Sequence record: SRR2962707_4996
Strand: one strand, 5' to 3'
DNA length: 35,167 bases
How positions within the stretch are numbered: position 1 is the first letter of the stretch; each line of letters begins with the position of its first letter. Both the position numbers and the translations under genes were made by a program. Below the pieces are notes generated by a model. It ran no database searches and was not told the origin of the DNA. It worked only from the letters and a program-made list of their open reading frames with translations. Positions 2,834 through 29,999 of the stretch are shown here, piece by piece.

Positions 2834-2845
2834 TGATCTTTCCTA

Positions 2846-3640: not shown

Positions 3641-3655
3641 AATGATTTATCCCCT

Positions 3656-4834: not shown

Positions 4835-4860
4835 TGTAACGCTCCTGCACGATGAAATTA

Positions 4861-4887
4861 GTCCGCAATCATTGCATGAATGCGGAC
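4861..4887 (-). other. Intercistronic hairpin after the substrate-binding protein gene
   Basis: GTCCGCA...TGCGGAC inverted repeat between the SBP and first permease genes, a typical mRNA stabiliser/attenuator position in ABC operons. Confidence 0.55.
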
Positions 4888-4907
4888 CAAATCTAATTAA
4901 TTAGATA

Positions 4908-5939: not shown

Positions 5940-5980
5940 TGTCTTGGTTCTCCTAACTAGACATCTGGATATTGAGCAAA

Positions 5981-6006
5981 TGTATTATAGATGCTACTTT
6001 AATACA
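5981..6006. promoter_or_regulatory. Putative upper-module operator TGTATTA-N12-TAATACA
   Basis: Perfect 7-bp inverted repeat upstream of the SBP gene. Related sites at 6073, 10500 and 11369. Confidence 0.6.
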
Positions 6007-6072
6007 ATCACCTTTTAACCAATCGGTCAACACGTCATATTTTCCGAAATGGGTTGCATTAGAAATGCATAA

Positions 6073-6098
6073 TGTAGTATTGTTATGCCAATAATACA
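6073..6098. promoter_or_regulatory. Putative upper-module operator TGTAGTA-N12-TAATACA
   Basis: Near-perfect inverted repeat just upstream of the aldehyde dehydrogenase RBS. Confidence 0.6.
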
Positions 6099-6111
6099 AA
6101 TGGAGCAGGCT

Positions 6112-8464: not shown

Positions 8465-8539
8465 GGTGCAACCTGCTAGCAGATACGCATTAAGAACTCA
8501 AAACAAAACCATCTAGCCGCGCGAAATACCCACCAGATA

Positions 8540-9277
8540 TTACAGTGATAGTTGCGGTACAACGCCGTCCAGTACTTTTGAACTTTTTATGCCGAGGCTT
8601 CGCATCACCCACCAAGCACTGCAAATATTAGACGATAGGAAAGGGATTTTGCTTGACTGAGAGGCTTTTTGGATCGCGGGCACAGTGATCATTCCCGTTC
8701 CAGATAGGACCACGGCATCGGCATCTGTATCACCAATTTCATTAAGTGCCGTCGCTACTTCATCTGTGGTCAGTTCATAGGCTTTGAACTCCTCGGACAT
8801 CTTGCGAATTTTCACAACTTCAAGACCGAGGCTTTCCCAGTAAGCCACGGAAAGTGCCGTTAGCCAATCAGGGTAAGGAGAGACAAGCACGATTGATCGC
8901 GCGTTTAATGTGTCTAACGCTTGCGAAATTGCGAAGCTCGCGGTCGTCACACGTGCACCAATGTCTTTTGAGAACTGTTCACACAGGGCTTTATCTTCTA
9001 TCGCTCCATTGCGATAGGATGGGCCGGTCAGACCGATTGAAAGAGCATCCAACTTTATGGAGCCAAAATCGTGAACCTGCTTTGCATATTTCTCAAGATA
9101 TATCTGATTGCGCTCGTCTAATGTCGTGTTAGGCATCGGGCTGAAGCGCGAGAAATGCAGGCCAACACTGCTTGGCAGCAAATAGCGCATTTCTGGCTCA
9201 ACGGTCGGATTGGCCGGAGGAACCAATACGCCAACGCGGTAGTCTGGATCCATAATTTTTGCGTCAATCGTATTCAT
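8540..9277 (-). CDS. Asp/Glu racemase - maleate isomerase - arylmalonate decarboxylase fold protein lacking both canonical cysteines
   Basis: GVLVPPANPTVEPE, VSPYP and SSN motifs. GLTG and SGTG sit where GCT and SCT are expected. ATGA overlap with the upstream monooxygenase. Confidence 0.85.
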   Translation of the reverse strand: MNTIDAKIMDPDYRVGVLVPPANPTVEPEMRYLLPSSVGLHFSRFSPMPNTTLDERNQIYLEKYAKQVHDFGSIKLDALSIGLTGPSYRNGAIEDKALCEQFSKDIGARVTTASFAISQALDTLNARSIVLVSPYPDWLTALSVAYWESLGLEVVKIRKMSEEFKAYELTTDEVATALNEIGDTDADAVVLSGTGMITVPAIQKASQSSKIPFLSSNICSAWWVMRSLGIKSSKVLDGVVPQLSL

Positions 9278-10476
9278 AGTGCGTCCTTAATTTTAGCTAA
9301 CTTACGCGGCGGCGCCATGTCGATCATCGAACTGGTCAATAAATAGTCGCGTGCTTTGGATGGATCAGCGGCAGCATCGGCAATGAAGGCCAGCCAATCT
9401 TGCTTACCAGTTACGTTCTTATCCGTTCTTGGAAGGAGGAAATCTGTAGCTATATGCAGCCGCTCTTTAAGGGCCGCCGCAAATATATCGACACCGCCGA
9501 TTGATGTTTCCAACTGGGAAATAATACTGGTGGCAATTCCATAGGCATCATGAAAACCGCAATTCATGTTCATGCCACCTTTTGTATTGGTCAAATGAAC
9601 CGCATCGCCGATGAGACCAATGCGCCCAAGATGGTTTTGTTTCACGACCATTTTGCTTGCGCCATATATATCCGTGCCGAGGATTTCTAAACCGCCGGCA
9701 ACCTTGGGCAAGAACTCGCGCACGATTGGCATATACCAATCTGCAGATTTTGCTTTTTCGTCACTTGTACCTTCTGGAACGCGGATGATGATGCGCCAGC
9801 AATCTGGCATTTCCAGCAAGCTCACAGATCTCTGATCTTCAGAATAAATATAGGAAACAGATGCCAACTCCGGCATCAAATCTACAATGGATTTATCGAC
9901 GATGAGGCGAAGAACGCGTCCAGGATATTTGACCCCTTCCTCATCAAAGCCAAGCGCATTTCGAACGGCGCTCTGAGCGCCATCGGCTCCAAGAACGAAT
10001 TTTGCCCGAATGGTTTCGCCATTCGTTGTGGTGACCCAAGCAGAAACATCGTCTTGCCCAACATCCTGCACCGCGGCCTGGTAACGGATCGTGGCTAAGT
10101 TTGTCGCCAGCGCTTTGGCCAATAAGTGAGGCGTTATTGCTGACTGCTCAAGGTGAACGCGGTAAGGCACCGATGTGTCTGCGCGAAGCGACACAGGCTG
10201 ATTAAATTCGCCAATTCGCTCGCCGCCGATTTTAAGATAAGCGATGCGTTCAGCTTTGCTGCCCAAATCAAGCATAACATCAAGAAGACCAAACTCATCT
10301 AGGATTTCTAAGGTCGGTGGATGAAACGTCGATGCTTTAGATGCAATATTTAGTGCATCGCGTTTTTCCAAAATGATGCTACTCACACCATGTTGCGCAA
10401 GTTTAAGCGCAGCTGTTAATCCAACCGGCCCTGCACCGCAAATTACGACATCACTATGCAACGCGGCATCTTCCAT
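9274..10476 (-). CDS. FAD-dependent monooxygenase (aromatic-ring hydroxylase family)
   Basis: GAGPVG, GADGA and GDAVH...GGMNMNCGFHDA fingerprints. Start moved to ATG 10476 (GGAGG RBS at 10482-10486 on the - strand). Confidence 0.92.
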   Translation of the reverse strand: MEDAALHSDVVICGAGPVGLTAALKLAQHGVSSIILEKRDALNIASKASTFHPPTLEILDEFGLLDVMLDLGSKAERIAYLKIGGERIGEFNQPVSLRADTSVPYRVHLEQSAITPHLLAKALATNLATIRYQAAVQDVGQDDVSAWVTTTNGETIRAKFVLGADGAQSAVRNALGFDEEGVKYPGRVLRLIVDKSIVDLMPELASVSYIYSEDQRSVSLLEMPDCWRIIIRVPEGTSDEKAKSADWYMPIVREFLPKVAGGLEILGTDIYGASKMVVKQNHLGRIGLIGDAVHLTNTKGGMNMNCGFHDAYGIATSIISQLETSIGGVDIFAAALKERLHIATDFLLPRTDKNVTGKQDWLAFIADAAADPSKARDYLLTSSMIDMAPPRKLAKIKDAL

Positions 10477-10499
10477 GGAAACCTCCAAACCAATCTTAA

Positions 10500-10524
10500 T
10501 GTATGTTGTATCTAACATAATACA
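10500..10524. promoter_or_regulatory. Putative upper-module operator upstream of the monooxygenase
   Basis: TGTATGT-N11-TAATACA containing the inverted repeat TATGTT-N6-AACATA. Confidence 0.5.
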
Positions 10525-10763
10525 ATAAGGCGCGCAACTGATCTTGAAACTGGATTATGCAACGGGAGATTAAAATGAACTTGAGCTGGAGCTGCATATC
10601 ACTGAAAAAGAACCGACCTTAGTTTTATCCAAATGTCATATTAAATTATTTACCTGCGGTTATTGATCGCGGGGTAACTTTGGATTGGATTTCCTGCTAT
10701 AGTGGACGCATAGTTAGTGATGTTTTGGCTATGCCAAAAGGTTACAAATCATTGGAGACGAAA

Positions 10764-11303
10764 ATGACTTTTGAAGCGCCATACGCACTCAATATTTCAG
10801 ATGTGGAGATTGTGACCAATAAAAAAGGGACACGCGAAGCTGTGGCTACTTTTCATGGCCGGATGGGCACGCAGACTGCAAAACAAGAGATAAAAAGCGA
10901 TGAATTTGCTGATTTATTTGATTGTTGCCGCCTGCTCGCAAAAGACATTCTGGCCAAAGAATTTCGATTAAATTCAAAAGTGGATTTAGACTTCGAACTT
11001 ACCAGTGAAGACGGAATCACCGTCTGGCATACGAAACCATCGACGTTCCTAAAAATACCGATGGAGATGAGCATGCAGTGGTCCTGCATGCATATGACGA
11101 AGAACTACAAATCGTTCACATCACTCGGTGTCGTCGAAATGCCGTCTGAATTTAAATTGGTCAATGGCGCGCTTCCAACAAAAGAAACACTCCAGTTGAT
11201 GCTCAACTCCATGGAATCAGGCATCGAATTTATGGGCATGTTGATCCAACAGCGTGACGAAATCGATCATGACAAGGAAATGGCAGCTGAAAAAGCCTCA
11301 TAA
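10764..11303 (+). CDS. Hypothetical protein, no family recognised
   Basis: 179-aa ORF with GGAG RBS before ATG 10764. Fills an otherwise empty interval. Confidence 0.65.
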   Translation: MTFEAPYALNISDVEIVTNKKGTREAVATFHGRMGTQTAKQEIKSDEFADLFDCCRLLAKDILAKEFRLNSKVDLDFELTSEDGITVWHTKPSTFLKIPMEMSMQWSCMHMTKNYKSFTSLGVVEMPSEFKLVNGALPTKETLQLMLNSMESGIEFMGMLIQQRDEIDHDKEMAAEKAS

Positions 11304-11368
11304 GGGGATGATTTAAGACTGTCATCGACTTTTCTGCGCACAACGTTGGCTGATGGTTCTTGCAATAA

Positions 11369-11399
11369 TGTAGTAATGTAGATACATTAGTATTACTAC
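11369..11399. promoter_or_regulatory. Putative upper-module operator upstream of the aminotransferase
   Basis: TGTAGTA half-site, inner palindrome TAATGTA-GA-TACATTA (11374-11389, HutC-like TGTAnnTACA) and outer GTAGTAAT...ATTACTAC repeat. Confidence 0.6.
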
Positions 11400-11406
11400 C
11401 TGAAAT

Positions 11407-12711
11407 GTGAGAAGTCTGATGGATTGTAAAAGCGCCGCATTTGAATATGGAAAAACCTATCGTGATCGCGCGCTAAAGAGCGTTGCTTTCGGCGTAAGCT
11501 CAACCCCTCGAGGCAGGCAACTACCTGCGCCTATCGTGGTAAAACGCGCTGTAAATGCGCATGTTTTTGATGAAACTGATAATAAGTTCATTGACTACGC
11601 GCTTGGTTATGGTCCCCTTATTCTCGGCCACAGCCCGCAATGCGTTATCGACGCCGTTCACCACGAGCTCGCAATGGGTATGCGCACGGCAAGCGTGCAT
11701 AAAGGCGAGGCTGAATTAGGCGAACTCATTGCCCAAACACTACCCTGCGCAGAACTATCCTCGTTCGTTAGCTCCGGCTCAGAAGCCGTGCACCTTGCAT
11801 TACGAACAGCAAGAGCTGTCACTGGTAAATTGCCAATTATAAAATTCCGCGGAAATTATCATGGCTGGCTTGATAATATCCACATAGCCAATGACGTGCA
11901 GAACGATGGGCCGGCAACGGTAGGTCAAGACAACAGCGCCGCGCAGAATATTAAGATTTTGGATTGGGGTGATACCGATGCGTTTATGCGCGAAATTTCA
12001 TCTGATTATGCAGCAGTTATTCTAGAACCAATTGCGGTCAATGGCGGATGCGTTTATCCGCCGGCAGGCTTTCTTGAGTGCGTTAGGCAAAAGACGAAAG
12101 AGTTGGGCGTCGTTCTCATTTTCGACGAAGTGATAACAGGCTATCGCCTATCGCTTGGCGGCGCGCAGGAAAAATTGGGCATCACGCCTGATTTGTCCGT
12201 AATCGGAAAATCGATGGGCGGCGGTCTGCCTATTGGCGCTATCGCCGGCACAGCTGAAGTTATGGAGCCTATTGCTTCTGGCCGCATGCTTCATCGCGGC
12301 ACTTTCAATGGCAATCCGCTAAGCGTTGCCGCTTCAATTGCTTCCATCACTTATCTTCGCGATAATAGCGCGACGCTCTACCCCAAAATTGACGCGATGG
12401 CGAAAGATTTGGAAGATCATGCAAAGCAATGCGTTGCCGCGACCAATTTAACGGCGAGCATAACGCGGACAGGCTCTGCCTTGCAGATATTTCTTGGCAC
12501 GTCCGAAATCAAAAAACTTGCCGACACGGCAAACATTAGCCGGGAGCAAACGGCCGACTTTGCCGCCGAATTATTGATACGCGGTGTGCAAACGATATCG
12601 CGCGGTTTGATGTATGTATCAAATGCCCATACGCCAACCGACATTGAGGAAACAAAACAGGCTTTCGACGGCGCATTTGAAGCCCTTGCCGCTAAAGCAA
12701 TCGCGTCATAA
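11407..12711 (+). CDS. Class-III PLP aminotransferase (glutamate-1-semialdehyde aminomutase-like, probably not true HemL)
   Basis: SSGSEA, YHGW, IFDEVITGYR, PLP Lys in GKSMGGGLP, GTFNGNP. Alternative start at ATG 11419. Confidence 0.9.
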   Translation: MRSLMDCKSAAFEYGKTYRDRALKSVAFGVSSTPRGRQLPAPIVVKRAVNAHVFDETDNKFIDYALGYGPLILGHSPQCVIDAVHHELAMGMRTASVHKGEAELGELIAQTLPCAELSSFVSSGSEAVHLALRTARAVTGKLPIIKFRGNYHGWLDNIHIANDVQNDGPATVGQDNSAAQNIKILDWGDTDAFMREISSDYAAVILEPIAVNGGCVYPPAGFLECVRQKTKELGVVLIFDEVITGYRLSLGGAQEKLGITPDLSVIGKSMGGGLPIGAIAGTAEVMEPIASGRMLHRGTFNGNPLSVAASIASITYLRDNSATLYPKIDAMAKDLEDHAKQCVAATNLTASITRTGSALQIFLGTSEIKKLADTANISREQTADFAAELLIRGVQTISRGLMYVSNAHTPTDIEETKQAFDGAFEALAAKAIAS

Positions 12712-12863
12712 TCGAGCGTGAAACATTCAGAAGACGGTGCATACATTGCGGTTCGCTTTGTTGATAGTTAACCGCCAATATTTAATTTTCGGCGCGCTGA
12801 ATTTAAAAAATGAAGAATTAAAGCGGAAATCCCTTACAACAAATCTTGTTCTATTTTTCAAAT

Positions 12864-12875
12864 AGTGTTAACACT
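12864..12875. promoter_or_regulatory. Putative lower-module operator AGTGTTAACACT
   Basis: Perfect 12-bp palindrome upstream of the lyase gene, matching sites at 14588 and 14664. Confidence 0.65.
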
Positions 12876-12913
12876 TTTGTAAATTCCAATTCAAAATAGA
12901 ACTGAGATATATA

Positions 12914-13843
12914 ATGGATAAAGCCAAGTCATCGAAGGCCCGCATTTACCGCGAAATGATTGCAAGCGGCGATCTTATCGTATCGGCGGGTGCTTATGAC
13001 GGTTATAGCGCTCGGTTAATCGAGAAAGCTGGATTTAAGACGGTCGCAACCAGCGGAGCTGCCATTTCCAATTCCCGCATGGGCATTGCAGATATGGGCT
13101 TCATGGGGCTCGCAGAGAATTTAGACCAATGCCGAGCAATCGTTCGGTCGGTTAATATTCCTGTCACCTGTGATGCTGATACCGGCTACGGGAATCCGGT
13201 TAATGTCTACCACACAGTTCAAGAATTTGAGGCTATTGGCGCAGTTGGCGTGAACATCGAAGACCAAGTTAATCCCAAGCGCTGCGGCCATATGGCGGGC
13301 AAAGAGGTGATTGACCGCGTTGAAATGATCAAGAAAGTTGGAGCCGCTTGCCGTGCTCGCCGTGATGATGATTTTGTGATTGTTGCCAGAACAGATGCCC
13401 TCGCGGTTGAGGGTATGGATAAAACGCTTGAGCGCATTCGTGATTATGTAAAAGCCGGCGCCGACATGATTTTTGCCGACGCCGTTGATTCCGAAGAGAC
13501 ACTTGCGCGCATTCTAGAAGCAAGCGATGCGCCTGTTACGGTGAATATGGGTTTTGGTATTCGCGAGCGGCCAACAACGCCATTAATTCCCCTACCCCGC
13601 CTGAAAGAAATGGGGGTTAAACGGATCAGCTTGCCGCGCATGTTGCCAGCTGCGGCCATCATGGGCATGCGTTCAGCATTAGAGGTAATGCGCGAAGTGA
13701 TGGAAACTGGAAAACCAGCTCATCGCCCAGATTTGCTGGTCGGTATCGAAGATATTATGGACCTTATGGACTATGAATCAGCGCGCGCATTGGAAGCCGA
13801 ACTCCTATCAGTGGAAAAAATCCAAACTAAATATAAAAGCTAG
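12914..13843 (+). CDS. Isocitrate lyase/PEP mutase family C-C lyase (PrpB / 2,3-dimethylmalate lyase-like)
   Basis: DADTGYG, IEDQ, catalytic loop KRCGH, VARTDA, AGADMIF. Confidence 0.92.
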   Translation: MDKAKSSKARIYREMIASGDLIVSAGAYDGYSARLIEKAGFKTVATSGAAISNSRMGIADMGFMGLAENLDQCRAIVRSVNIPVTCDADTGYGNPVNVYHTVQEFEAIGAVGVNIEDQVNPKRCGHMAGKEVIDRVEMIKKVGAACRARRDDDFVIVARTDALAVEGMDKTLERIRDYVKAGADMIFADAVDSEETLARILEASDAPVTVNMGFGIRERPTTPLIPLPRLKEMGVKRISLPRMLPAAAIMGMRSALEVMREVMETGKPAHRPDLLVGIEDIMDLMDYESARALEAELLSVEKIQTKYKS

Positions 13844-13910
13844 CTCGCTTAGATTTAGCAGCAGTCTGCTTGTCACTATTTAATTTTGGGTCCACTGCTT
13901 GCTGAACGAC

Positions 13911-14576
13911 TTAGGCGCCGTTGAGCAATTGATGTGCGTGTTCATCTGCCAATTGGGATTGAAGGCTGTGCGTCGCGCGCGCGATATGGTTACGCATCAA
14001 CGATTCTGCCAAAAATGCGTCGCGCGACTTCATCGCCTTGAGGATCTGCCAGTGCTCATTATGGGCCGTCTCACTGCGACCAGGGGTGCGGCTGGACCGA
14101 TAACGATACATGCGAAGTAAGTAGTAAAGCTCATCACAGAGATAATTTCTTATGCGCTCGTTTCCGCAACCAGCCGCTATTCGTTGATGAATATCAACCG
14201 GCTCAACGTCTGGATTTTCCAGCGCCTCTGAAAAATCATTTAAGAGCTGATCTAAGTCTGCGTCAGACATCGCCTGCGTGGCAAGGCGCACAGACATCGC
14301 CTCTACCCCCTCTCTGATTTGGAAAATTTCAATCATATGCGCGACCGTTAACTCAATCACACGGGCCTTCATAAAAGGTTCTTTTTTGATGAGGCCAACG
14401 CCTTCAAGACGTTTTACCGCCTCGCGCACGGGACCACGACTAACATCGAGCTTTTTAGCAATCGACAACTCATTAACTGGTGCGCCCTGAGGTATTTTAC
14501 CTTCGATAACTTGCGACAAAATGAGCTTAAAAATCTCATCAACCATCGTCTTACTATTTTGCTGCTGAATCATCAC
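13911..14576 (-). CDS. GntR family regulator with FCD domain, similar to methylcitrate-cycle PrpR
   Basis: VSRGPVREAVKRLEG wHTH. LCDELYYLLRMYR...EHWQIL...RDAFLAESLMRNHI resembles GntR-type PrpR proteins. Confidence 0.9.
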   Translation of the reverse strand: MMIQQQNSKTMVDEIFKLILSQVIEGKIPQGAPVNELSIAKKLDVSRGPVREAVKRLEGVGLIKKEPFMKARVIELTVAHMIEIFQIREGVEAMSVRLATQAMSDADLDQLLNDFSEALENPDVEPVDIHQRIAAGCGNERIRNYLCDELYYLLRMYRYRSSRTPGRSETAHNEHWQILKAMKSRDAFLAESLMRNHIARATHSLQSQLADEHAHQLLNGA

Positions 14577-14587
14577 TGCCCAGTTTC

Positions 14588-14600
14588 TGTCGACACTTTT
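14588..14600. promoter_or_regulatory. Putative lower-module operator TGTCGACACTTTT (autoregulatory)
   Basis: TGTCGACA palindrome 12 nt upstream of the FCD-GntR start codon. Confidence 0.55.
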
Positions 14601-14663
14601 TCCTTTTTATCAGACTCGCTGATCTGCGCCAAGATGAATAACAACGCATCGAAACTTCGGCAT

Positions 14664-14679
14664 AAAGTGTTGACACTTT
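14664..14679. promoter_or_regulatory. Putative lower-module operator AAAGTGTTGACACTTT overlapping a TTGACA element
   Basis: AAAGTGT-TG-ACACTTT inverted repeat upstream of the aconitase operon. Confidence 0.65.
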
Positions 14680-14704
14680 TACCAAAAATAGTTATTTTGA
14701 AAGT

Positions 14705-17449
14705 ATGGTTTTAGAGCAAGAAATCGACACGCCTTTAAAGCGCTTTAAATTAAGTGCGCCGGTCGATTATACCTGCGTTGACTTGCAGAAAATCACTTCA
14801 GCGCGCAGCAAACCTTTACCGAAAAGCCTACTCGTCGTGCTCGACAACCTCTCTCGCCAAAAGCGACTTGGAAAGAATGTAGATCACGAAATAGGGACGC
14901 TCATCGGCTGGCATACAGCCTCACCGGAACTCAGTTTTCCGCTTTGCGTTGATCGGGTTTTATTTCCCGATAGCAGCGGATTGCCTGCATTAATGGACTT
15001 GGCTGCGGCGCGTGATGCTATCAAGCAAAGAGGCGGCGATCCCTCGTCTATAGAGCCAACTGTACCTGTCACTTTAGTCGTCGATCATTCTTTGATGGTT
15101 GACTATTTTGGTCGCCTAGATGCTGCGGCGCTAAACGAAGCCAAAGAAATTGAGCGCAATGGTGAACGCTATGCTTTTCTTAAATGGGCCGAAAGCGCCT
15201 TTGATGCGCTTTCTATTGTACCGCCAGGATCAGGTATTATCCATCAGGTGCATTTGGAAAAATTGGCGGAACTTATCAAAGTCGATGTAAGCGACCCCTC
15301 CAGCCCCTTGGTTTGCCCAGAATTCGTGCTCGGCTGCGACTCGCATACAACTATGATCAACGCCATCGGCCTTTTAGCCTGGGGTGTAGGCGGCATTGAT
15401 GGCGAAAGCGCGATGCTTGGCCATCCTTACACTGTTCGCATTCCCCGTGTAGTCGGCGTGCGCTTAGTTGGAAAGCTTGGTGCGGGGATTATGCCGACAG
15501 ATCTCGTTTTAACGATCACACACCGGCTTCGTAAGTTCGGCGTGACCGGTGCATTCGTCGAATTCTTTGGTGAAGGTCTGGATGATTTGTCCGTCCCCGA
15601 TAGAGCAACAATTGCAAACATGGCGCCTGAATATGGCGCAACAATTGGCTTCTTCCCAATTGATGACAGAACCATCGATTACTTAAAACAATCAGGGCGC
15701 AGTACTGATCGTATTGCGTTGATCCAAGCTTACGCAACCGAGACTGGTTTGTTTCGGCGCAGCGGCGAAACTGAGCCCGAATTCAGCAGCGTTATCGAAA
15801 TTGATCTTTCCGAAATCACGCCAAGCGTGGCAGGGCCCAAGCGGCCGCAGGATCTCGTCGCGTTAAAAGACATCGCAAAAACATTTCACAATGCACTTTG
15901 GCGCGCGCCAGAGGACGGCGGCTTTGGTCTCTCCTTAGATGATTTGGAAAAATCCGCCCAAATTACTTTAGAGGGCAAAAGCCATGAATTGACCCATGGC
16001 AATATTACCATCGCGGCGATTACCTCTTGTACCAACACCTCTAATCCGACGGTTATGTTTGGCGCAGGCCTGCTGGCGCGCAATGCGCGGGCGTTTGGCC
16101 TAAAAGTGCCCCCCTTTGTCAAAACCTCGATGGCACCGGGTTCGAAACTTGTAACCGATTATTTGCGCAATGCCGATTTACTTACCCCACTTGAAGAACT
16201 TGGTTTTTATGTTGTTGGATATGGCTGCACGACCTGCTCTGGTAAATCTGGCCCTATCAACGAAAGCATCGCATCTGCTGTAATGGACAATGATCTTGTC
16301 GCCACATCAGTTCTTTCTGGCAATCGCAACTTTGAGGGTCGCATTCATAAGTCTTGCCGCGCAAACTACCTAGCATCCCCGCCATTGGTTGTTGCTTTGG
16401 CCCTCGCCGGCCGCATCGATATTGATTTTGATTTTGAGCCCTTGGGCATCGCACAAAATGGAACGCCGGTGTTTTTGCGTGATATATGGCCGGACCGCGA
16501 AGAGATCGCAACCTACGTCGGCACGAGCCAAGTGCCGCAACAATTTACGAATAGCTACAAATCTCTGTTTGACGGATCGCAATTGTGGAACGAACTTGAA
16601 TGCGCCGACGGTGAGACTTTTCCGTGGGATGCGGGCAGCACATATTTGAAGCGTCCTCCATTTTTTGAACTTGTGAAAAGTGTTCAGGCCGATGCGTTGA
16701 ACAATTGCCAGGCCCTTGTCGTCGCCGGCGATTCATTGACCACAGACCATGTGACGCCAAGCGGCGAAATTCTGCCAGAAAGTCTTGCAGGCAAATATTT
16801 GATTGAAAATGGCGTTGCACCCAAGGACTTTAATGCTGTGACGCAGCGCCGTGGCAATCATGAATTCATGGCGCGCATAACATTTGGCAATCAGCGCATG
16901 AAAAATCGGCTCGCTGGCGGCCAAGAAGGTGGGTTCACTAGGCTTGGAGACGACGAAGAGCTAATACCAATTTTTGAAGCGTCTCAATGGATGCAAAAAA
17001 ATGATGTTACGCCCATCGTTATCGCCGGACGTGATTATGGCATGGGATCGAGCCGCGATTGGGCGGCCAAAGGGCCAATGCTTCTGGGCATTAGAATTGT
17101 GCTCGCGCAATCATTCGAACGCATCCATCGCTCTAATCTGGTTGGCATGGGCATCATGCCTCTTATTTTTGAAGAGGGCACTTCAACTGAAACACTCAAT
17201 CTCACGGGCTTTGAAACTTTTGAATTTAAAGGGCTGAATAACGCAATTGCCCGCGGCGAAAAGATTAAAGTCACCGCGCGAAGCCAAGGTCAACTGGTTG
17301 CCGAGTTTGATGTCGTTTTAGATATCTCAAATGCCCATGAGCGCCACCTACTCCAAAGCGGCGGCATATTTCAAAACCTTATAGAAAACAGTGTTGCAGC
17401 TTTGCCAAGTGCAGAAGCACGCAAACACTTTAGCCAAGAGGCACAATGA
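14705..17449 (+). CDS. acnA: Aconitate hydratase A family protein (paralogue with altered substrate motifs)
   Basis: DHS, DSHT, NMAPEYGAT, AITSCTNTSNP, GCTTC, SGNRNFEGR, GSSRDWAAKG and FERIHRSNL. All three Fe-S cysteines are present. Confidence 0.93.
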   Translation: MVLEQEIDTPLKRFKLSAPVDYTCVDLQKITSARSKPLPKSLLVVLDNLSRQKRLGKNVDHEIGTLIGWHTASPELSFPLCVDRVLFPDSSGLPALMDLAAARDAIKQRGGDPSSIEPTVPVTLVVDHSLMVDYFGRLDAAALNEAKEIERNGERYAFLKWAESAFDALSIVPPGSGIIHQVHLEKLAELIKVDVSDPSSPLVCPEFVLGCDSHTTMINAIGLLAWGVGGIDGESAMLGHPYTVRIPRVVGVRLVGKLGAGIMPTDLVLTITHRLRKFGVTGAFVEFFGEGLDDLSVPDRATIANMAPEYGATIGFFPIDDRTIDYLKQSGRSTDRIALIQAYATETGLFRRSGETEPEFSSVIEIDLSEITPSVAGPKRPQDLVALKDIAKTFHNALWRAPEDGGFGLSLDDLEKSAQITLEGKSHELTHGNITIAAITSCTNTSNPTVMFGAGLLARNARAFGLKVPPFVKTSMAPGSKLVTDYLRNADLLTPLEELGFYVVGYGCTTCSGKSGPINESIASAVMDNDLVATSVLSGNRNFEGRIHKSCRANYLASPPLVVALALAGRIDIDFDFEPLGIAQNGTPVFLRDIWPDREEIATYVGTSQVPQQFTNSYKSLFDGSQLWNELECADGETFPWDAGSTYLKRPPFFELVKSVQADALNNCQALVVAGDSLTTDHVTPSGEILPESLAGKYLIENGVAPKDFNAVTQRRGNHEFMARITFGNQRMKNRLAGGQEGGFTRLGDDEELIPIFEASQWMQKNDVTPIVIAGRDYGMGSSRDWAAKGPMLLGIRIVLAQSFERIHRSNLVGMGIMPLIFEEGTSTETLNLTGFETFEFKGLNNAIARGEKIKVTARSQGQLVAEFDVVLDISNAHERHLLQSGGIFQNLIENSVAALPSAEARKHFSQEAQ

Positions 17450-17452
17450 CCC

Positions 17453-18808
17453 ATGTTTGATTTAACTTTGGCCAACGGCAACATCATATTTCCTGGTGAC
17501 AGCGTTCGCGCAGGTACACTTGGTATCAAGAATGGGAAAATTGCAGCCATCCTTCCCGCAAGTGACAAACCAAAATCTGAACGCACAATTGATTGCACTG
17601 ACAAATGGATTTTTCCAGGGCTTATTGATCCGCATACGCATATCGGTTTTGGCAATAAAGAGAATGATTGGGACACTGAATCAAAAGCAGCAGCGCTTGG
17701 CGGTGTGACCGGACTAATGAGTTTCTGGCGCGGTGATAGTCTTGCCGATTCTGCAACCAAGTGGAAGCAAGAAGCCCTTCAACGAAGCATCATCGATTTC
17801 GGGTTTCATTTTGGCATTACCTCACACCAGCATGTTGCCGAACTCGCTGAGGTGACAAAGCTGCATGGCGTCAGCTCAATCAAAGTTTATTTGATGTATA
17901 AGGGTGCGACCGGCGCGGCAAAAGGCTTTACCGAGGTTGATGACAGTCTACTTTTTGCAGCGCTAAATGCAGGCTCCAAAGTCAAAGGCGGCGTTGTCGG
18001 AGTTCATTGTGAAAACACGGAAGTAATTCCGTTTTTCCGCGGCCCTATCAAGGATTCCGGACGCGATGATCTTTTGGCATGGGATGAGCAATCGCCCGAT
18101 TTTCTAGAAACTGAAAATGTTTTCAGGGTCTGTTATTTTGCGGAAAAAACCAATTGCCCCGTCAATATTGTGCATATGTCGGCGCTCGAAAGCTTAAATT
18201 TAGTGCGCAAAATGCGGCATCGAAATCGCCCGCCAATTCATGTTGAAACATGCATTCACTATTTAAGCCTTCCCCATGATGCGCCCATCGGATCACTTGG
18301 AAAAGTGAACCCACCGCTACGCTCGCAGGCCGATATTGATGGTCTTTGGGAAGGCATTATTGCCGGTGACATTACAACTGTTGGCTCTGACCATGTTCCG
18401 CGCAAACGGTCGACAAAGGGGCCGAGCATATGGGAAGCTTCAGCCGGTTTTCCCGGTATCGGGCAAATTCTTCCAGTTTTGCTGCAGGAAGGATTTTTCA
18501 ATCGCGATGTGCCGCTTGCAACGCTTGCCGCAGTTACCAGCAAGAACGTCGCGAAATTATATAAGCTTGCCTATAAGGGTGATATCGCAATTGGCTATGA
18601 TGCCGATTTTGCCATCGTCGATCCCCATAGTGAAACACTGATCAAAGCAGACGCATCTCCCTCTTATTCGGACTACTCAGTCTACGAAGGGAAAAAATGC
18701 CAAGGGCGGATCACGCACACCATATTACGGGGCAGCATCTTGGCCGAAGACGGCGCGCTCTCTGTGAATGAAAAGCCTGCTGGACAATATTTACACCGCG
18801 CGTGTTGA
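17453..18808 (+). CDS. Cyclic amidohydrolase (dihydroorotase/hydantoinase/allantoinase family)
   Basis: DPHTH, carboxylatable Lys (SIKVY), VHCEN, VHMS, KVNPPLR, GSDH, DADFAI. Confidence 0.92.
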   Translation: MFDLTLANGNIIFPGDSVRAGTLGIKNGKIAAILPASDKPKSERTIDCTDKWIFPGLIDPHTHIGFGNKENDWDTESKAAALGGVTGLMSFWRGDSLADSATKWKQEALQRSIIDFGFHFGITSHQHVAELAEVTKLHGVSSIKVYLMYKGATGAAKGFTEVDDSLLFAALNAGSKVKGGVVGVHCENTEVIPFFRGPIKDSGRDDLLAWDEQSPDFLETENVFRVCYFAEKTNCPVNIVHMSALESLNLVRKMRHRNRPPIHVETCIHYLSLPHDAPIGSLGKVNPPLRSQADIDGLWEGIIAGDITTVGSDHVPRKRSTKGPSIWEASAGFPGIGQILPVLLQEGFFNRDVPLATLAAVTSKNVAKLYKLAYKGDIAIGYDADFAIVDPHSETLIKADASPSYSDYSVYEGKKCQGRITHTILRGSILAEDGALSVNEKPAGQYLHRAC

Positions 18809-18819
18809 AAGGAATTAAA

Positions 18820-19539
18820 ATGACACAACGAGTATGGGACAAATTCCTTACGGAAAAAGACAAGAAGATCTTTCAACTGGCCGGTTATGGAAAGCGTGGC
18901 GGCTTTGGCACGCGGCCAGCCCTGTTTATTATCGATGTTCAATATAATTTTTGTGGTGATGAGCCCGGCGAAGCGCAAGAAGAAGGCGTGAAAAAATATC
19001 GCACCCATTGCGGTGAAGTTGGCTGGAAGGCTGTGCCACATATCGAGCGCCTATTAAAAATAGCGCGCGAGAAAAATTTGCCGGTTTTCTATACCCAGTC
19101 AGAACGGCGTCCCGATATGATTGATAGCGGCGTACAGGTTGGTAAAAATCATCGCGGCTCTGAAAAGACGAGCCAAGAAGGAACACATGCCACGCAGACA
19201 GTTGCCCCGCTAAAGCCGGAGCCTCAAGATATTTTAATTGGCAAGCGAAAACCTTCGGCGTTCTTCGGCACTATCTTTATGAGCCATCTGAACTTTTTGG
19301 ATGTAGATACGCTCATCATGACCGGTTGCACGACATCTGGCTGCCTACGCGCAACATCGGTTGATGCCTATTCTCTAAATTTCAAAGTGATCATACCTGA
19401 GGAAACCGCATTTGATCGTTTTGAAGCCAGTCATGCCATTAATCTGTTTGATCTAAACTGCAAATATGCCGATGTGATACCGGTTGATGAAGTAGCCCAA
19501 TATATGGAAAGCCTACCGGTGCGCGCGAACCCAGAATAA
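18820..19539 (+). CDS. Isochorismatase family amidase (maleamate amidohydrolase / N-carbamoylsarcosine amidase-like)
   Basis: Asp-Lys-Cys triad: IIDVQ, K..PSAFFGT, TTSGCLRAT. ATG 18820 follows an AAGGA RBS. Confidence 0.92.
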   Translation: MTQRVWDKFLTEKDKKIFQLAGYGKRGGFGTRPALFIIDVQYNFCGDEPGEAQEEGVKKYRTHCGEVGWKAVPHIERLLKIAREKNLPVFYTQSERRPDMIDSGVQVGKNHRGSEKTSQEGTHATQTVAPLKPEPQDILIGKRKPSAFFGTIFMSHLNFLDVDTLIMTGCTTSGCLRATSVDAYSLNFKVIIPEETAFDRFEASHAINLFDLNCKYADVIPVDEVAQYMESLPVRANPE

Positions 19540-19611: not shown

Positions 19612-19674
19612 CTGACCTCTGAAGGCAGAGGTCTGTTGTTCGAATCGCGCCGAGTGCACCAATAATTTCAATGG
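19612..19674 (+). repeat. Degenerate att direct repeat (copy of the tRNA 3' half from the anticodon arm, plus 13 nt of flank)
   Basis: 19626-19674 CAGAGGTCTGTTGTTCGAATCGCGCCGAGTGCACCAATAATTTCAATGG aligns to 1-49 with 7 mismatches. The T-stem is disrupted, and there is no D-arm or acceptor 5' strand upstream. Confidence 0.9.
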
Positions 19675-19919: not shown

Positions 19920-21485
19920 CTACCAAGGCACATGCTTGATCTCAACCTGCGGAAGGCCAATAGGCTCAATCCCGCATTGATTTGCGAGCGCACCAAACGC
20001 CTCTGTTTCAATCAAGTCCTCATAGGGCAGCTCGGGGAAAATCAATCCCGCACGGTGTAATGATGCATCAACAAGCAACATACATCCCCCAACACCATCA
20101 AGTGCTACGCGCTTAAGATGTCTTAGATCACTTAAATGATACCTGCTGCCTACATCAGCAGGCGGCTGATAGAGACCTTTATTGATGGCTCTAAAATAAC
20201 GATAGTTCTTTATCAAACCACGCGTGACAAAACTATTTTGGTCAAAACTTGGACCGTTGCTAAATTTGACACAATTTGGCGCGGCGATTTTGGCATCAGT
20301 AGCCAACAATTGTTCGATAATATCAGCTGGGAAATCGCAAACATCTGCGTCCAACCACAATACCCAATCATCCTCATCACGCAGTGAATGACCAATCAAA
20401 TAATTGCGGACTTTTGCAATACGGCTGCGCCTTTGGCGCTGCTTACTTCGCGCTGATCGCTCCTCGGTGCGCAGCTCGTTTCCTGTTGTCTGTGTAAGAA
20501 TAGAAATGTCGACAAAGCTGCCACCAAACTTAGCTTTAAACTCCTCTAATTTTAGACGCGTGGAATCTGTGCTATCGCCTTCGCAAAATGCAATACGAAT
20601 GCGGTCCTTTGGGTACTCTAAACGCATCAACAAATCACCCAATGACATCAGATGCTCAGCTGCATTTCTAACCGGAATGAAAATAGCCACTTTGCCATCC
20701 TTGGGAGGAAGCTCGCTCTGGGCAACCGCAGAAACTTCTTGAATTAATTTAGCCGCATCAAATTGCGGCCCACGGCTGAGCCTATAAAGTGCTCGGTAAA
20801 TGAACTTTTTTGCAATTGGAATCCCGCTATTTTTATTCCGATTATGCCACCATGTTCCCGCCCAATGGTGAACAGACAAAGTGCTTTTCGTTTGATCGGT
20901 TTTCCCAGCCTTATCAACGGGCGCAAACAGATAATTATCGTGAATCGCGAATGCTTTTTGATCATCATAACTTAGCTGTGCGGACGTAAAAATGCATGGG
21001 CCGGTGATGTCGAGAACATCTTTTTCACTGCTGCTGTTCATCTTAAGGTATTTTAAAAGGTGAGGCCAAAACGGATGGTTTTTGGGACTCGCTATCGTAC
21101 CATTGAAAAGGAGGTAAGGTTGTCCGCGCCAGTCCGCTTGGGTTTTTGTATGGGCGTCCGGTTCTTTACAAACGACGACCCTATCTTCCGCAACAATCGA
21201 ATCAAACGAGCGAACACATTCACAGTCGAGATCGGCATATACGCCGCCGAAATGATGCAACAGCATATAGCGGGCAGCATCTGCGCGCATAACGCCCCGT
21301 GGGTACTGGACATATGTGGACAGAAAGTCAGGATAAAACTCAGCAACGAAGTCTAGTAGGCTGCGATCTGTCCAAAGTATGCGCTTCCAGTTGGGATTAT
21401 GCGTTTCCCATGTTTCCACATAAGTTTTGAACTCATCTGGAATCTCGCTGGTTTTCCAGGTCTGATGTAAAATTTTAGGAATCAT
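19920..21485 (-). CDS. Two-domain glycosyltransferase: N-terminal Och1/GT32-like plus C-terminal Anp1/Mnn9 (GT62)-like
   Basis: N-terminal: MIPKILHQTWK, RADAARY, GGVYADLD, HPFW, TGP, HHWAGTW. C-terminal: AKVRNYL, WVLWLDADV, LDGVGG, HRAGLIFP, IETEAFG. Confidence 0.85.
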   Translation of the reverse strand: MIPKILHQTWKTSEIPDEFKTYVETWETHNPNWKRILWTDRSLLDFVAEFYPDFLSTYVQYPRGVMRADAARYMLLHHFGGVYADLDCECVRSFDSIVAEDRVVVCKEPDAHTKTQADWRGQPYLLFNGTIASPKNHPFWPHLLKYLKMNSSSEKDVLDITGPCIFTSAQLSYDDQKAFAIHDNYLFAPVDKAGKTDQTKSTLSVHHWAGTWWHNRNKNSGIPIAKKFIYRALYRLSRGPQFDAAKLIQEVSAVAQSELPPKDGKVAIFIPVRNAAEHLMSLGDLLMRLEYPKDRIRIAFCEGDSTDSTRLKLEEFKAKFGGSFVDISILTQTTGNELRTEERSARSKQRQRRSRIAKVRNYLIGHSLRDEDDWVLWLDADVCDFPADIIEQLLATDAKIAAPNCVKFSNGPSFDQNSFVTRGLIKNYRYFRAINKGLYQPPADVGSRYHLSDLRHLKRVALDGVGGCMLLVDASLHRAGLIFPELPYEDLIETEAFGALANQCGIEPIGLPQVEIKHVPW

Positions 21486-21645
21486 TTGGACATCAATGAT
21501 TCATCGTGCTGTCGGTGTCCATATCAATTTCTCTATTTTTAGGCAGGACGCTCTTTTCTTTTCTTGGCGTTTTTTCACCTTGATTTGCACAGTATGTTTC
21601 GGTGTTAAAACTCTTCACGAGGGCAATCTAAATTTTAGGTAAATA

Positions 21646-22809
21646 TTAAGAGGCTCTCAACTCTTCGCAAACGGCGCTTCTGATCAAATCAAATGTGTGG
21701 TTTTCGCGAACAAATTGTCTGGCCCGTTCTGCAATTTGAAAGGCTTTCGCGGGGTTTTTCGTTAAATGTAGAATTTCCTGGGCGACCATTTGCGCTGTAT
21801 CCGCACGGATAAAATGTTCGCCTTCAACAATAGTAAGACCCTCAACCGCCTTGGCGCTGGCACATACGACGACGCCTGCAGCCATCGCCTCTAGAACTTT
21901 AATTCTCGTTCCACTTCCAAAGCGCATCGGCATTGGTGCATAGGCTGATTTAGCAAGAAGAGGCTGAACATCAGCTGGGTTTTCGATTAGTTCAATTTGC
22001 GGGCCTTTGCACAGTTTTCGGATTTTCCGATTAGGACTGCGACCCGCCACAACAAATTTACCATTGCTATTGAGAAAATTTGGCATGCCCGCATCAATGA
22101 ATTGCGAAATGGCGTCCACATTAGGGAAATAGAACAAATGGCCGATATAGGCCATATGAGCGAAACGATAACGCCCTACTTCAATTGGAATGTTAAATAG
22201 ATTTTCATTGGGAATTGGGTTTGGAATAATCCGAGCCGTTACATCCGGTGTCAAATCGAGCAATGCCGCCTGATCTGTGCTTGAACAAACCCAAACAGAC
22301 GTCGCCAAATGCGCCGCGTCAATATCATCCCTTTCGGCCACTTTTATTTGCTCAGCAAAATTATGACCCCGAAATAGGCGCTTGAAAAGGGAGAATTGTG
22401 AAGTCTGATCTTTTAGCAACGCGGATTCGATATTGTGCATATCAAGGATGACCGGAATTCGTTGTTTTTTAAATGCTGGCATCAATTCAGCCAAAGAAAT
22501 GCCTTCCAGAATGACGATATCTGGTTTGAATATTTTCACTTCACGCTCAATCTCTTCGCATTGAGCGGCCGAGAAGGTCAAAACCGTAGGATGACCAGAA
22601 TTTCTCATATGGCTGAGTTTACCGGAACCTGTTGAGCCCAAAATGCGGCTATCTATACCATCAGGTTCGCTCGATAATTTTTCACCAGAAAGGCTTAAGT
22701 TTAAAAAATCACCGAGCGATTTCGATGCCATCGCGATAGCAAAATTACGGATATCTGCTCCCGACGTCGCAGCAAATGGATATTCAACAGTCATTTGTAG
22801 AATTCGCAC
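21646..22809 (-). CDS. Glycosyltransferase family 4 (GT-B)
   Basis: DMHNIES, YFPNVDA and FGSGTRIKVLEAMAAG motifs. Confidence 0.9.
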   Translation of the reverse strand: MRILQMTVEYPFAATSGADIRNFAIAMASKSLGDFLNLSLSGEKLSSEPDGIDSRILGSTGSGKLSHMRNSGHPTVLTFSAAQCEEIEREVKIFKPDIVILEGISLAELMPAFKKQRIPVILDMHNIESALLKDQTSQFSLFKRLFRGHNFAEQIKVAERDDIDAAHLATSVWVCSSTDQAALLDLTPDVTARIIPNPIPNENLFNIPIEVGRYRFAHMAYIGHLFYFPNVDAISQFIDAGMPNFLNSNGKFVVAGRSPNRKIRKLCKGPQIELIENPADVQPLLAKSAYAPMPMRFGSGTRIKVLEAMAAGVVVCASAKAVEGLTIVEGEHFIRADTAQMVAQEILHLTKNPAKAFQIAERARQFVRENHTFDLIRSAVCEELRAS

Positions 22810-22847
22810 TGGCTAGGTTACCAAAATAAGCGTTGATCTTAATATCT

Positions 22848-23618
22848 TCAGTTTTTAAATCGGCGATTATGAATTTTAGATCTAAACGTCTTCACTGCGG
22901 CCAGAACATTACCCCATTTAGCACGTGCGACTTTGCGGTCACGCTTCATATCGAGCCTATTTTGTTCAATCAATGAGCCGCCAAGTACGCTGCTTATTTC
23001 GGCTATAGGATTTGGTGTGACAGACCAAACACGAATGTTAAATTCCCAAGTATGGGCAATATCTTCATCCACCGGCCGGAAAATACGTGATCTATTTAAA
23101 AGCCTTTTGGCTGCGGGTTTTGTAATCAAATAGCAAACGAGCCCCGAAGCTGGATATTTATAAAGAACAAAATTGACATCATCTATCGTGTGCAGAACTT
23201 CGACTTTCTTGGGTTGAAAATCAAATAATTTCACGATGTCCCAATGGCTTGGATTTGAAAGTGAAACATTTAGACAATGAATAAAATGTCGGGCATCTAT
23301 TATAGAAAAATCATCTTCAAATACCAATCCAGCGTCAAAATCGCTATCGGCGATCTGTTGCCAAATTTTGCGATGACCTGCATAGGCCGCCACTTCTGCT
23401 AGCCCCAAGGATCGCTTTGACAATATTCTATTTAACCAAGGCGAGTAGAGCTTTTGAACAATTGGGCTTTCTTTACCGACTCCAGTTACAAAGGTGCCCT
23501 CAAAACCAAGAGCGCTAAGTTGTTCCTGCGCGCTTTTCCGGCGCGGTCCATTCTCCTCCTCCATAGTCAAAATGAAGGTGGGTAATTGTTTAGCACTTAG
23601 GATTAAGTCAGATTTCAA
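22848..23618 (-). CDS. Glycosyltransferase family 25
   Basis: EVAAYAGHRKIW, VFEDD, YLITKPAAKRLL and PVD motifs. Confidence 0.88.
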   Translation of the reverse strand: MKSDLILSAKQLPTFILTMEEENGPRRKSAQEQLSALGFEGTFVTGVGKESPIVQKLYSPWLNRILSKRSLGLAEVAAYAGHRKIWQQIADSDFDAGLVFEDDFSIIDARHFIHCLNVSLSNPSHWDIVKLFDFQPKKVEVLHTIDDVNFVLYKYPASGLVCYLITKPAAKRLLNRSRIFRPVDEDIAHTWEFNIRVWSVTPNPIAEISSVLGGSLIEQNRLDMKRDRKVARAKWGNVLAAVKTFRSKIHNRRFKN

Positions 23619-29917: not shown

Positions 29918-29983
29918 CCATCATCCTTCAAACTTGTTATTATCACGCTTGACCAGACTTCAATACTTTCATAGCCTCCAAAT

Positions 29984-29999
29984 TTGACCAGTTAGTCAA
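29984..29999. promoter_or_regulatory. RutR box TTGACCAGTTAGTCAA
   Basis: One mismatch to the consensus TTGACCAnnTGGTCAA. Lies between rutR and the operon. Confidence 0.8.

Follow-up and report, generated by a model that had tools for sequence, protein, structure and literature searches.

The 35,167-nucleotide stretch of DNA from sequence record SRR2962707_4996 (hereafter the window) carries, at 12914-19539, a module made up of a PrpB-like lyase, a GntR-type regulator with an FCD ligand domain (FCD-GntR) and a three-gene aconitase operon. We read this module, at a probability of roughly 65%, as the core of a catabolic pathway for a carboxylated nitrogen heterocycle, which would proceed by ring opening, deamidation, hydration and cleavage. 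Direct observation covers which genes are present and how their order is conserved, the operator, the standing of the aconitase as a paralog, the intact state of the catalytic residues and active-site changes specific to the clade; from these we infer the chemical steps, their order, the repressor role of the regulator and the nature of the substrate. A literature search found no description of this gene combination in print, and the module probably represents a conserved bacterial pathway that has so far escaped description. New here are an active-site signature of the aconitase, two types of feeder module, an operator shared across genera and an anaerobic analogue. The core comprises the following features:

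12914-13843, + strand: lyase of the phosphoenolpyruvate (PEP)-mutase / isocitrate-lyase superfamily (Pfam PEP_mutase, E 4.9e-54)
13911-14576, - strand: GntR regulator with FCD ligand domain (Pfam FCD, E 6e-20; GntR, E 3.7e-8)
14705-17449, + strand: AcnA-type aconitase, 914 residues (TIGR01341, 1075.8 bits)
17453-18808, + strand: binuclear-metal cyclic amidohydrolase, 451 residues (Pfam Amidohydro_1/3)
18802-19539, + strand: isochorismatase-fold cysteine amidase, 245 residues (Pfam Isochorismatase PF00857, E 1.2e-25)
19614-19633, + strand: terminator-like hairpin after the operon (terminator-like sites are no more numerous across the region than in shuffles)

In the proposed scheme, the amidohydrolase would open a cyclic imide or lactam bearing carboxylates, and the cysteine amidase would hydrolyse the resulting half-amide with release of ammonia. 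The product would be an unsaturated polycarboxylic acid, aconitate-like and probably with an extra or bulkier acidic group, which, isomerised where needed, would be hydrated by the dedicated aconitase paralog. The PrpB-like lyase would then cleave this hydroxy-acid to yield a dicarboxylic acid along with either a 2-oxo acid or glyoxylate, and both fragments would enter central metabolism. The FCD-GntR would repress the lyase gene, its own gene and the aconitase operon via palindromes overlapping the -35 regions, and would presumably be released by a pathway intermediate. In the window, an adjoining amine module would supply the core: an omega-amino acid-like compound would be imported, its amine converted to a carboxylate by transaminase and aldehyde dehydrogenase and its ring hydroxylated by a flavin monooxygenase, while a maleate-isomerase-like protein would adjust the double-bond geometry or decarboxylate. 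The original prediction, made from the window alone, had likewise derived a substituted aconitate from hydrolysis of a cyclic amide and not from citrate-synthase chemistry; this fits the data best, with independent support from the anaerobic analogue described below.

The five genes lie as had been predicted (lyase, FCD-GntR, aconitase, amidohydrolase, amidase). Only 4 bases separate the aconitase stop from the amidohydrolase start, and the amidase start overlaps the end of the amidohydrolase gene by 7 bases. A pattern scan with one genome per species, in which gene presence per locus was scored by tblastn, retrieved 57 alphaproteobacterial loci (Hyphomicrobiales and Rhodobacterales) and 2 loci from Oscillospiraceae. 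Aconitase, amidohydrolase and amidase occur together on one strand in 51 of the 57 alphaproteobacterial loci, and the other six end at contig ends, which bears out the predicted co-transcription of the aconitase with the amidohydrolase and amidase genes. Fifty of the 57 have the lyase, and the FCD-GntR stands next to the aconitase in 47. The window's closest relatives are L002-L004, with amidohydrolases 74-76% identical. The cluster is rare: among 400 other sampled Pseudomonadota no genome matched at E <= 1e-40, and an ortholog at least 80% identical was present in 2 of 401 sampled Alphaproteobacteria. Isochorismatase paralogs 44-50% identical occur in nine more sampled Alphaproteobacteria; they were rejected as cluster members, as the neighbours were unrelated in all five that were examined.

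The aconitase is a dedicated paralog. It passes the AcnA model TIGR01341 (1075.8 bits, cut-off 945) and fails the AcnD model TIGR02333 for the Fe/S-dependent 2-methylcitrate dehydratase (717.6 bits, cut-off 1419.85), and a housekeeping AcnA, 48-50% identical to the window's copy, is also encoded in all five relatives' genomes that were searched. Alignment to human IRP1 shows the three Fe-S cysteines and the catalytic Asp-His, Asp-Ser-His, Asn/Glu, Arg and Ser-Ser-Arg motifs to be intact. The conserved Gln of the loop (M/L)QDFTG, against which AcnA membership was checked, is replaced by Pro in the cluster copies, so that the loop reads PDSSG in 55 of 55 cluster aconitases and QDFTG in all five housekeeping AcnA and in human IRP1. 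Only nine differences are fixed between the 55 cluster and the 5 housekeeping copies (Q88P, F90S, T91S, V96L, V130L, C179I, T207F, N514K and Y653F); the first four are located in the QDFTG loop, and N514K, present in 55 of 55 cluster copies, lies in the motif CxxCxGN, adjoining two Fe-S ligands. We equate the loop Gln with Gln72 of mitochondrial aconitase, which contacts the substrate by binding its carboxylates; no printed statement on this was found. Due to the loss of Gln and Phe and the gain of Lys, the active site suggests a substrate larger or more acidic than aconitate. In a FastTree phylogeny, the cluster aconitases group as a single clade, which a long branch separates from the housekeeping copies. 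The sister of this clade is a third AcnA-type paralog of Rhodoplanes (G005, L070 253-2934) with the intermediate loop QDSSG; its identification as AcnD was considered and rejected (762.6 bits against the cut-off of 1419.85).

A special case of the proposed scheme would have plain aconitate as the intermediate. A citrazinate-like ring (2,6-dihydroxypyridine-4-carboxylate), or a reduced form of it, would be opened to the monoamide of trans-aconitate or tricarballylate and converted to the free acid, an isomerase or dehydrogenase would yield cis-aconitate, and aconitase would form isocitrate, on which the lyase would act as an isocitrate lyase. By its geometry, opening of a six-membered ring should give the trans acid, which would need an isomerase, and a candidate isomerase (maleate-isomerase-like, SnoaL-like or PrpF-like) is found in every version of the cluster; many transporter-type loci (see below) also carry a TcuA-like flavoprotein, the CitF/CitE of the anaerobes would fit citrate, and the conversion would consume only water, which suits anaerobes. 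However, a housekeeping AcnA is already present in all five genomes searched, and the cluster aconitase has fixed changes in a loop that bacteria and human IRP1 have in common, and this speaks for a different substrate. The C-terminal half of the lyase, moreover, differs from both PrpB and isocitrate lyase, and we know of no natural source of citrazinate; a literature search on citrazinic acid gave nothing. We consider plain aconitate an unlikely intermediate.

The lyase gives PrpB as its best family match but stays well below the cut-off of the NCBIfam equivalog TIGR02317 (241.9 bits, cut-off 354.4), as do the cluster lyases of the five relatives (232.7-248.4 bits). Its motifs PKRCGH, DADTGYG and EDQ, present also in all cluster copies aligned, correspond to the catalytic loop K-R-C-G-H and the metal-binding Asp/Glu motifs of the isocitrate-lyase/PEP-mutase superfamily, and because they are common to the whole superfamily they are not proof of PrpB identity. 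In the alignment, the segments 'NMGFGIRxRPTTPL' and 'LPRMLP' differ from genuine PrpB and add arginines, which would sit where PrpB binds the leaving acid. The nearest solved structures are 2-methylisocitrate lyases (E 1.5e-46), followed by the 2,3-dimethylmalate lyase 3fa3 (E 2.8e-40).

These scores bear on whether the lyase and aconitase serve propionate oxidation in a variant of the methylcitrate cycle, or the tricarboxylic acid (TCA) cycle, with the hydrolases merely adjacent by chance. Beyond the lyase's best family match and the aconitase's AcnA score, little recommends this explanation, and we regard it as highly improbable. No PrpC, PrpD or PrpF was found among the window's large open reading frames (ORFs) scanned against Pfam and NCBIfam, as had been predicted for the surroundings of the module, and these ORFs include no prpC with either prpD or acnD/prpF, the combination by which a methylcitrate operon would be recognised. 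Neither the window's lyase nor that of any of the five relatives reaches the PrpB cut-off, whereas genuine PrpB is encoded elsewhere in G002 and G005 (399.2 and 418.8 bits), in G005 adjoining a genuine PrpF. None of the five relatives' genomes searched has PrpD, and none has a 2-methylcitrate synthase over the cut-off. The closest complete genome, G001, has none of PrpB, PrpC, PrpD and PrpF over the cut-offs and still keeps the cluster, on which ground, together with the PrpB score, the METHYLCITRATE cycle reading was rejected. The housekeeping AcnA in five of five genomes, the gene order conserved across orders and the shared operator likewise speak against this explanation. The label of a re-tooled methylcitrate cycle, under which the module had been introduced, thus does not hold: the lyase misses the PrpB cut-off, the aconitase is neither housekeeping AcnA nor AcnD, and two of the five relatives keep genuine PrpB genes elsewhere in their genomes.

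The two hydrolases of the operon keep the catalytic residues of their superfamilies. Cyclic amidohydrolases are marked by HxH, a carbamylated Lys, two His and the Asp of the binuclear centre, with a Tyr five residues after the Lys. In the amidohydrolase, H61, H63, K144, Y149, H185, H241 and D313 are invariant in 16 sequences, and alignment with D-hydantoinase 1nfg pairs its HxH, Lys, Tyr, His, His and Asp with the corresponding motifs there, so that it has the residues of a cyclic amidohydrolase (hydantoinase, dihydropyrimidinase, allantoinase, dihydroorotase). It nevertheless scores below every NCBIfam equivalog cut-off (best, 262.5 vs 393.25 and 260 vs 357.85 bits) among named models that included D-hydantoinase/dihydropyrimidinase TIGR02033, allantoinase TIGR03178, ErtD and dihydroorotases. 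Relative to 1nfg, a conserved 7-residue insertion with two invariant lysines follows the catalytic Tyr (residues 150-164) and may bind a carboxylate of the substrate. The available portions of two papers report that hydantoinase-family enzymes open 3-substituted glutarimides to monoamides (PMC13098106, PMC11424739). The amidase is the most conserved gene of the cluster, at 71-91% identity across loci; its Asp ('IDVQ'), Lys ('KRKPS') and Cys ('SGC') are invariant in the alphaproteobacterial copies, and we take these motifs to be the Asp-Lys-Cys triad of isochorismatase-like cysteine hydrolases.

The relatives of the two enzymes would also accommodate a ureide route, in which a carboxylated hydantoin or dihydropyrimidine is opened by the amidohydrolase to an N-carbamoyl amino acid, the isochorismatase-fold enzyme takes off the carbamoyl group in the manner of N-carbamoylsarcosine amidase, and the amino-polycarboxylate so formed is deaminated elsewhere before aconitase and lyase act. 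The best solved relatives are D-hydantoinase for the amidohydrolase (E 1.1e-55) and N-carbamoylsarcosine amidohydrolase for the amidase (E 4.4e-31), and the window encodes a class-III aminotransferase. The amidase is, however, only slightly more distant from maleamate amidohydrolases (4l07, E 5.2e-25; 3ot4, E 1.9e-18) than from the carbamoyl amidase. The transporter-type loci, except L022, have no aminotransferase or other deaminating gene in view, so that a ureide route would stall there, and in both anaerobic loci the genes for hydratase, isomerase and lyase directly adjoin those of the two hydrolases, while the scanned genes include no identified deaminase. Taken together, a ureide substrate seems rather improbable, on a par with plain aconitate.

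The strongest argument for an aconitate-like product of the two hydrolases comes from the Oscillospiraceae. In both loci (from animal guts; L058 1-9757 and L059 about 6242-18384), genes for remote homologues of the amidohydrolase (36-39% identity with the window's protein) and the amidase (43-44%) stand together with those for a hydratase and an isomerase. Their genes run in the order metallo-beta-lactamase (MBL)-fold protein, LarA-like nickel-pincer isomerase, GntP permease, amidohydrolase, amidase, YbhJ-type aconitase-family hydratase (NF008503, 1064 bits), CitF, PrpF / 4-oxalomesaconate-tautomerase-like isomerase and CitE, the last seen in L059 only, as L058 ends inside the PrpF gene. Different protein families thus hydrate, isomerise and cleave after the same two hydrolases, which points to an aconitate-like hydrolase product. 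The two loci apparently constitute an anaerobic counterpart of the cluster that has no prior description. They also resemble E. coli ybhH-ybhI-ybhJ in combining a YbhJ-type hydratase with a YbhH/PrpF-type isomerase; in the available portion of PMC9068703, E. coli ybhH and ybhJ appear as uncharacterised.

A shared operator motif links the three transcription units of the module. The palindrome AAAGTGTYRACACTTT is found upstream of all three (lyase, GntR and aconitase operon), where three sites had been predicted, the first of them at 12864, which falls within the first of the following:

12862-12877, no strand assigned: operator site 1, ATAGTGTTAACACTTT, before the lyase gene (exact match at 12866 (+), one-mismatch match at 12862 (-))
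14588-14599, no strand assigned: operator site 2, CTGTCGACACTTT, beside the GntR start, with only the right half conserved
14664-14679, no strand assigned: operator site 3, AAAGTGTTGACACTTT, before the aconitase operon, a full 16-mer palindrome

Two of the three sites, ATAGTGTTAACACTTT and AAAGTGTTGACACTTT, are full palindromes. The motif TGTYRACACTTT occurs exactly at 12866 (+), 14588 (+) and 14664 (-) / 14668 (+), and with at most one mismatch it gives 6 matches against 0.47 expected, a number that none of 100 shuffles reached. The sites lie 37 bases ahead of the lyase ATG, 12 ahead of the GntR start codon and 26 ahead of the aconitase ATG. Site 1 overlaps a promoter-like TTAACA-18-CAAAAT (12868-12897), and the central TTGACA of site 3 is the first hexamer of the region's best promoter-like match, TTGACA-17-TATTTT (14670-14698), although promoter-like sites in the region overall are not above the shuffles (11 vs 10.1). 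The 16-mer AAAGTGTTGACACTTT recurs in the GntR-aconitase spacer of many genera, and an asymmetric site, CTGTCAACACTTT, stands beside the GntR start in other genera, like site 2 of the window. The GntR and aconitase genes diverge in 41 loci, and in 20 of these the spacer contains the strict 10-mer GTGTYRACAC; 22 of 49 strict sites fall in spacers totalling 13,960 of 1,052,701 bases, and most of the remaining ones lie upstream of transporter or monooxygenase genes. An FCD-type operator also stands upstream of the flavin monooxygenase gene in L007, L014, L042 and L046. The motif is a phylogenetic footprint and no chance match, because it is kept at the same place in other genera; the claim that the module has its own operator thereby gains support from both the enrichment in the window and the conservation outside it.

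Operators of the FCD-GntR family are palindromes with a GT-N-AC core. The window's regulator has the make-up of the FadR-like (FCD) subfamily, with an N-terminal GntR winged helix, a C-terminal FCD domain and a palindrome with the core TGTYRACA. Its best NCBIfam match, a phosphonate-associated regulator, stays far below the cut-off (96 bits vs 271.5), and judged by its domains it is a generic FCD-type GntR, presumably the repressor of the module. These matches lend no support to the predicted label 'PrpR-like', which would imply orthology with a characterised PrpR along with control over prp genes.

Two alternative upper modules adjoin the same core. The amine module of the window (1742-12711), which adjoins the core in 22 of the 57 loci, consists of:

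1742-5939, - strand: ATP-binding cassette (ABC) transporter (ATPase, two permeases, binding protein)
6085-7647, + strand: aldehyde dehydrogenase
7637-8464, - strand: GntR/UTRA regulator
8540-9277, - strand: maleate isomerase- or arylmalonate decarboxylase-like protein (Amdase family)
9274-10518, - strand: flavin adenine dinucleotide (FAD) monooxygenase
about 10731-11303, + strand: conserved protein of no known family
11407-12711, + strand: class-III aminotransferase

The ABC binding protein is nearest to gamma-aminobutyric acid (GABA)- and opine-binding proteins, the flavin monooxygenase to PnpA and HspB, the Amdase-family protein to maleate isomerases (2xed, E 1e-11) and the class-III aminotransferase, which is often present in amine-type loci, to HemL. 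In the second type, a gene for a SnoaL/NTF2-like protein of 128-155 residues (e.g., L020 9531-9998; L053 6934-7320) lies between aconitase and amidohydrolase. This gene is found in 27 loci, belongs only to loci of the tricarboxylate-transporter type and has no copy in the window. Genes for a TctA/B/C tripartite tricarboxylate transporter flank the core in the seven SnoaL-type loci annotated, and most transporter-type loci carry a flavocytochrome-c / TcuA-like flavoprotein, which at 122-147 bits resembles the TcuA of tricarballylate utilisation but lies below its cut-off of 369 bits. A tricarboxylate-type transporter together with a tricarballylate-dehydrogenase-like enzyme points to a polycarboxylate. 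Every locus with the SnoaL-like gene lacks the genes for monooxygenase and isomerase. Cultured bacteria with the transporter type include Stappia stellulata DSM 5886, Roseovarius halotolerans CECT 8110, Nitratireductor spp. and Afifella pfennigii DSM 17143, and Bosea lupini has the amine type. As two alternative feeders join the same core, the core would receive the same kind of intermediate by two routes, one of them probably starting from an imported acid and the other from an imported amine.

Confined to amine-type loci, the protein without a known family measures about 175-190 residues and has invariant Cys/His/Trp motifs (EFRxN, WHTxP, WSCxH, SGxEFxG). It has no Pfam or NCBIfam match and no usable match in the ESM Atlas. 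An AlphaFold model from 8 sequences reached a mean predicted local distance difference test (pLDDT) score of 72.7, and its best Foldseek match, to LeuA regulatory domains (E 0.014), missed the threshold of E <= 0.001. A relationship with the SnoaL-like protein was considered and rejected.

For the substrate itself, tetrapyrrole recycling is a long shot, even less probable than the plain aconitate and ureide alternatives. Here the amine version would import porphobilinogen or a similar aminomethyl-pyrrole acid and oxidise its aminomethyl group and ring to a maleimide- or pyrrolinone-type imide with acetate and propionate chains, which the core would convert to a tetracarboxylic 'aconitate' that is hydrated and split, e.g., to succinate plus 2-oxoglutarate. 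Imide acids of the same kind, such as the hematinic-acid-like compounds formed when haem, bilins and chlorophyll are photo-oxidised, would be taken up by the transporter version. Weak hints are the HemL-like aminotransferase, the binding protein nearest to GABA/opine binders and hemC adjoining the amine version; the Lys gain and the Gln and Phe loss of the aconitase and the Arg gain of the lyase would suit an extra carboxylate. The presence of hemC and a HemL-like aminotransferase allows a link to porphobilinogen or tetrapyrrole-derived imides and does not show it.

In three lineages of Hyphomicrobiales, whose gene orders differ, hemC (hydroxymethylbilane synthase) is the immediate neighbour of the amine version, at these positions:

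598-1704 of the window, + strand: hemC
5825-6769 of L044: hemC
5047-6192 of L083: hemC

In the window hemC converges on the transporter ATPase gene. In L044, the only hemC of the metagenome-assembled genome converges on the aminotransferase gene, and Bosea lupini has the same hemC/aminotransferase pair next to its cluster; in three more genomes of the group of B. lupini the coordinates fit the same arrangement, and two of these have a second hemC. As a substrate clue, this neighbourhood was downgraded to a weak lead, since hemC is not adjacent in G001 nor in the Rhodobacterales flanks examined. By chance, hemC also lies 6 kb from an unrelated isochorismatase paralog.

Several points weigh against the proposed scheme. 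L041, L053 and L056, loci with full flanks, have no lyase within the DNA examined. The closest relatives, L002-L004, have neither the FCD-GntR gene nor the strict operator, and in them the lyase gene immediately precedes the aconitase gene in the same orientation; regulation of this form is therefore not universal, and their module is presumably controlled otherwise, perhaps by the GntR/UTRA regulator. The 8-mer core of the operator, found in the GntR-aconitase spacer of 40 of 41 loci, usually as two copies about 83 bases apart (80 bases in the window), was counted in this relaxed form without a measured background rate. The support values of the aconitase phylogeny were not printed. An extra group on the aconitate-like product is deduced only from residue changes of presumed structural role, and a dedicated aconitase would not be needed if the hydrolases delivered plain cis-aconitate. 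Finally, the best solved relative of the amidase is an N-carbamoyl amidase, and with its hydantoinase-like partner a ureide ring (hydantoin, dihydropyrimidine) would also fit.

Among known systems, the logic of the proposed pathway appears nearest to the tail of nicotinate fermentation in Eubacterium barkeri, which reportedly comprises enamidase, dimethylmaleate hydratase DmdAB and 2,3-dimethylmalate lyase Dml. Compared by description only, both have a ring opener of the amidohydrolase superfamily, an aconitase-family hydratase, acting in E. barkeri on a substituted maleate, and a lyase of the PEP-mutase/isocitrate-lyase family. The hydratase of the cluster is, however, a single-chain AcnA-type protein of 914 residues, while that of E. 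barkeri is two-subunit and LeuCD-like; the cluster also has a separate isochorismatase-fold amidase and no B12 mutase, reductase or dehydrogenase steps, and its hosts are aerobic Alphaproteobacteria. With the methylcitrate cycle (PrpB, PrpC and PrpD, or AcnD and PrpF), the cluster shares a lyase homologous to PrpB with the KRCGH loop, an aconitase homologous to AcnA and AcnD and, as proposed, the hydration of a substituted aconitate followed by retro-aldol-type cleavage; it differs in that lyase and aconitase are below the PrpB and AcnD cut-offs and that synthase, PrpD and PrpF are missing among the scanned ORFs of the window.

Cyclic-imide metabolism by an imidase and a half-amidase is reported from Blastobacter sp., and the fungal nicotinate pathway is said to use a cyclic imidase and an amidase. 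To our knowledge, no dedicated aconitase or lyase takes part in cyclic-imide metabolism. The likeness lies in the opening of an imide ring and subsequent hydrolysis of the half-amide to a di- or polycarboxylate and ammonia, whereas the enzymes belong to other families and the products enter metabolism directly. The fungal nicotinate pathway is the subject of PMC9304392. The maleamate branch of aerobic nicotinate and nicotine degradation (amidase NicF or Ami, maleate isomerase NicE) has parallels in the relationship of the amidase to 4l07 and 3ot4, of the window's Amdase-family protein to maleate isomerases and of the flavin monooxygenase to HspB and PnpA. The cluster has no ring-cleaving dioxygenase or deformylase, though; its ring opening would be hydrolytic, and its product would go to aconitase and lyase, not to fumarate.

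The remainder of the window holds genes of other kinds. Three glycosyltransferase genes follow the operon (19920-23618, - strand), one of which encodes a protein of 521 residues with a DXD sugar-binding region and an Anp1-type mannosyltransferase domain (Pfam E 2.4e-40) of a kind familiar chiefly from fungi. Farther along (29285-35167) lies another hydantoinase-type cluster, distinct from the first; it encodes a RutR/YcdC-like TetR regulator, ABC transporter components, an M20 amidohydrolase and an amidohydrolase of 484 residues, and by its parts it looks like one for reductive pyrimidine or hydantoin utilisation. As to sequencing runs, no RNA run with the window was listed, and just three DNA runs contain small parts of it.

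Automatic annotation of the core genes as AcnA aconitate hydratase, methylisocitrate lyase, dihydroorotase and isochorismatase hydrolase would hide the pathway, whereas the PDSSG and Lys signature of the aconitase could be used to find the route in genomes. The cluster aconitase would be a natural example of how aconitase specificity is retuned, and the conserved operator with its regulator is a potential biosensor for a pathway metabolite. Overall, the data point to an unrecognised route in marine and soil Alphaproteobacteria, with another form in gut anaerobes, by which a nitrogen heterocycle would be turned into central metabolites through hydrolysis, hydration and carbon-carbon cleavage. 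Knowing the substrate would add a compound class to the carbon and nitrogen sources of these bacteria.

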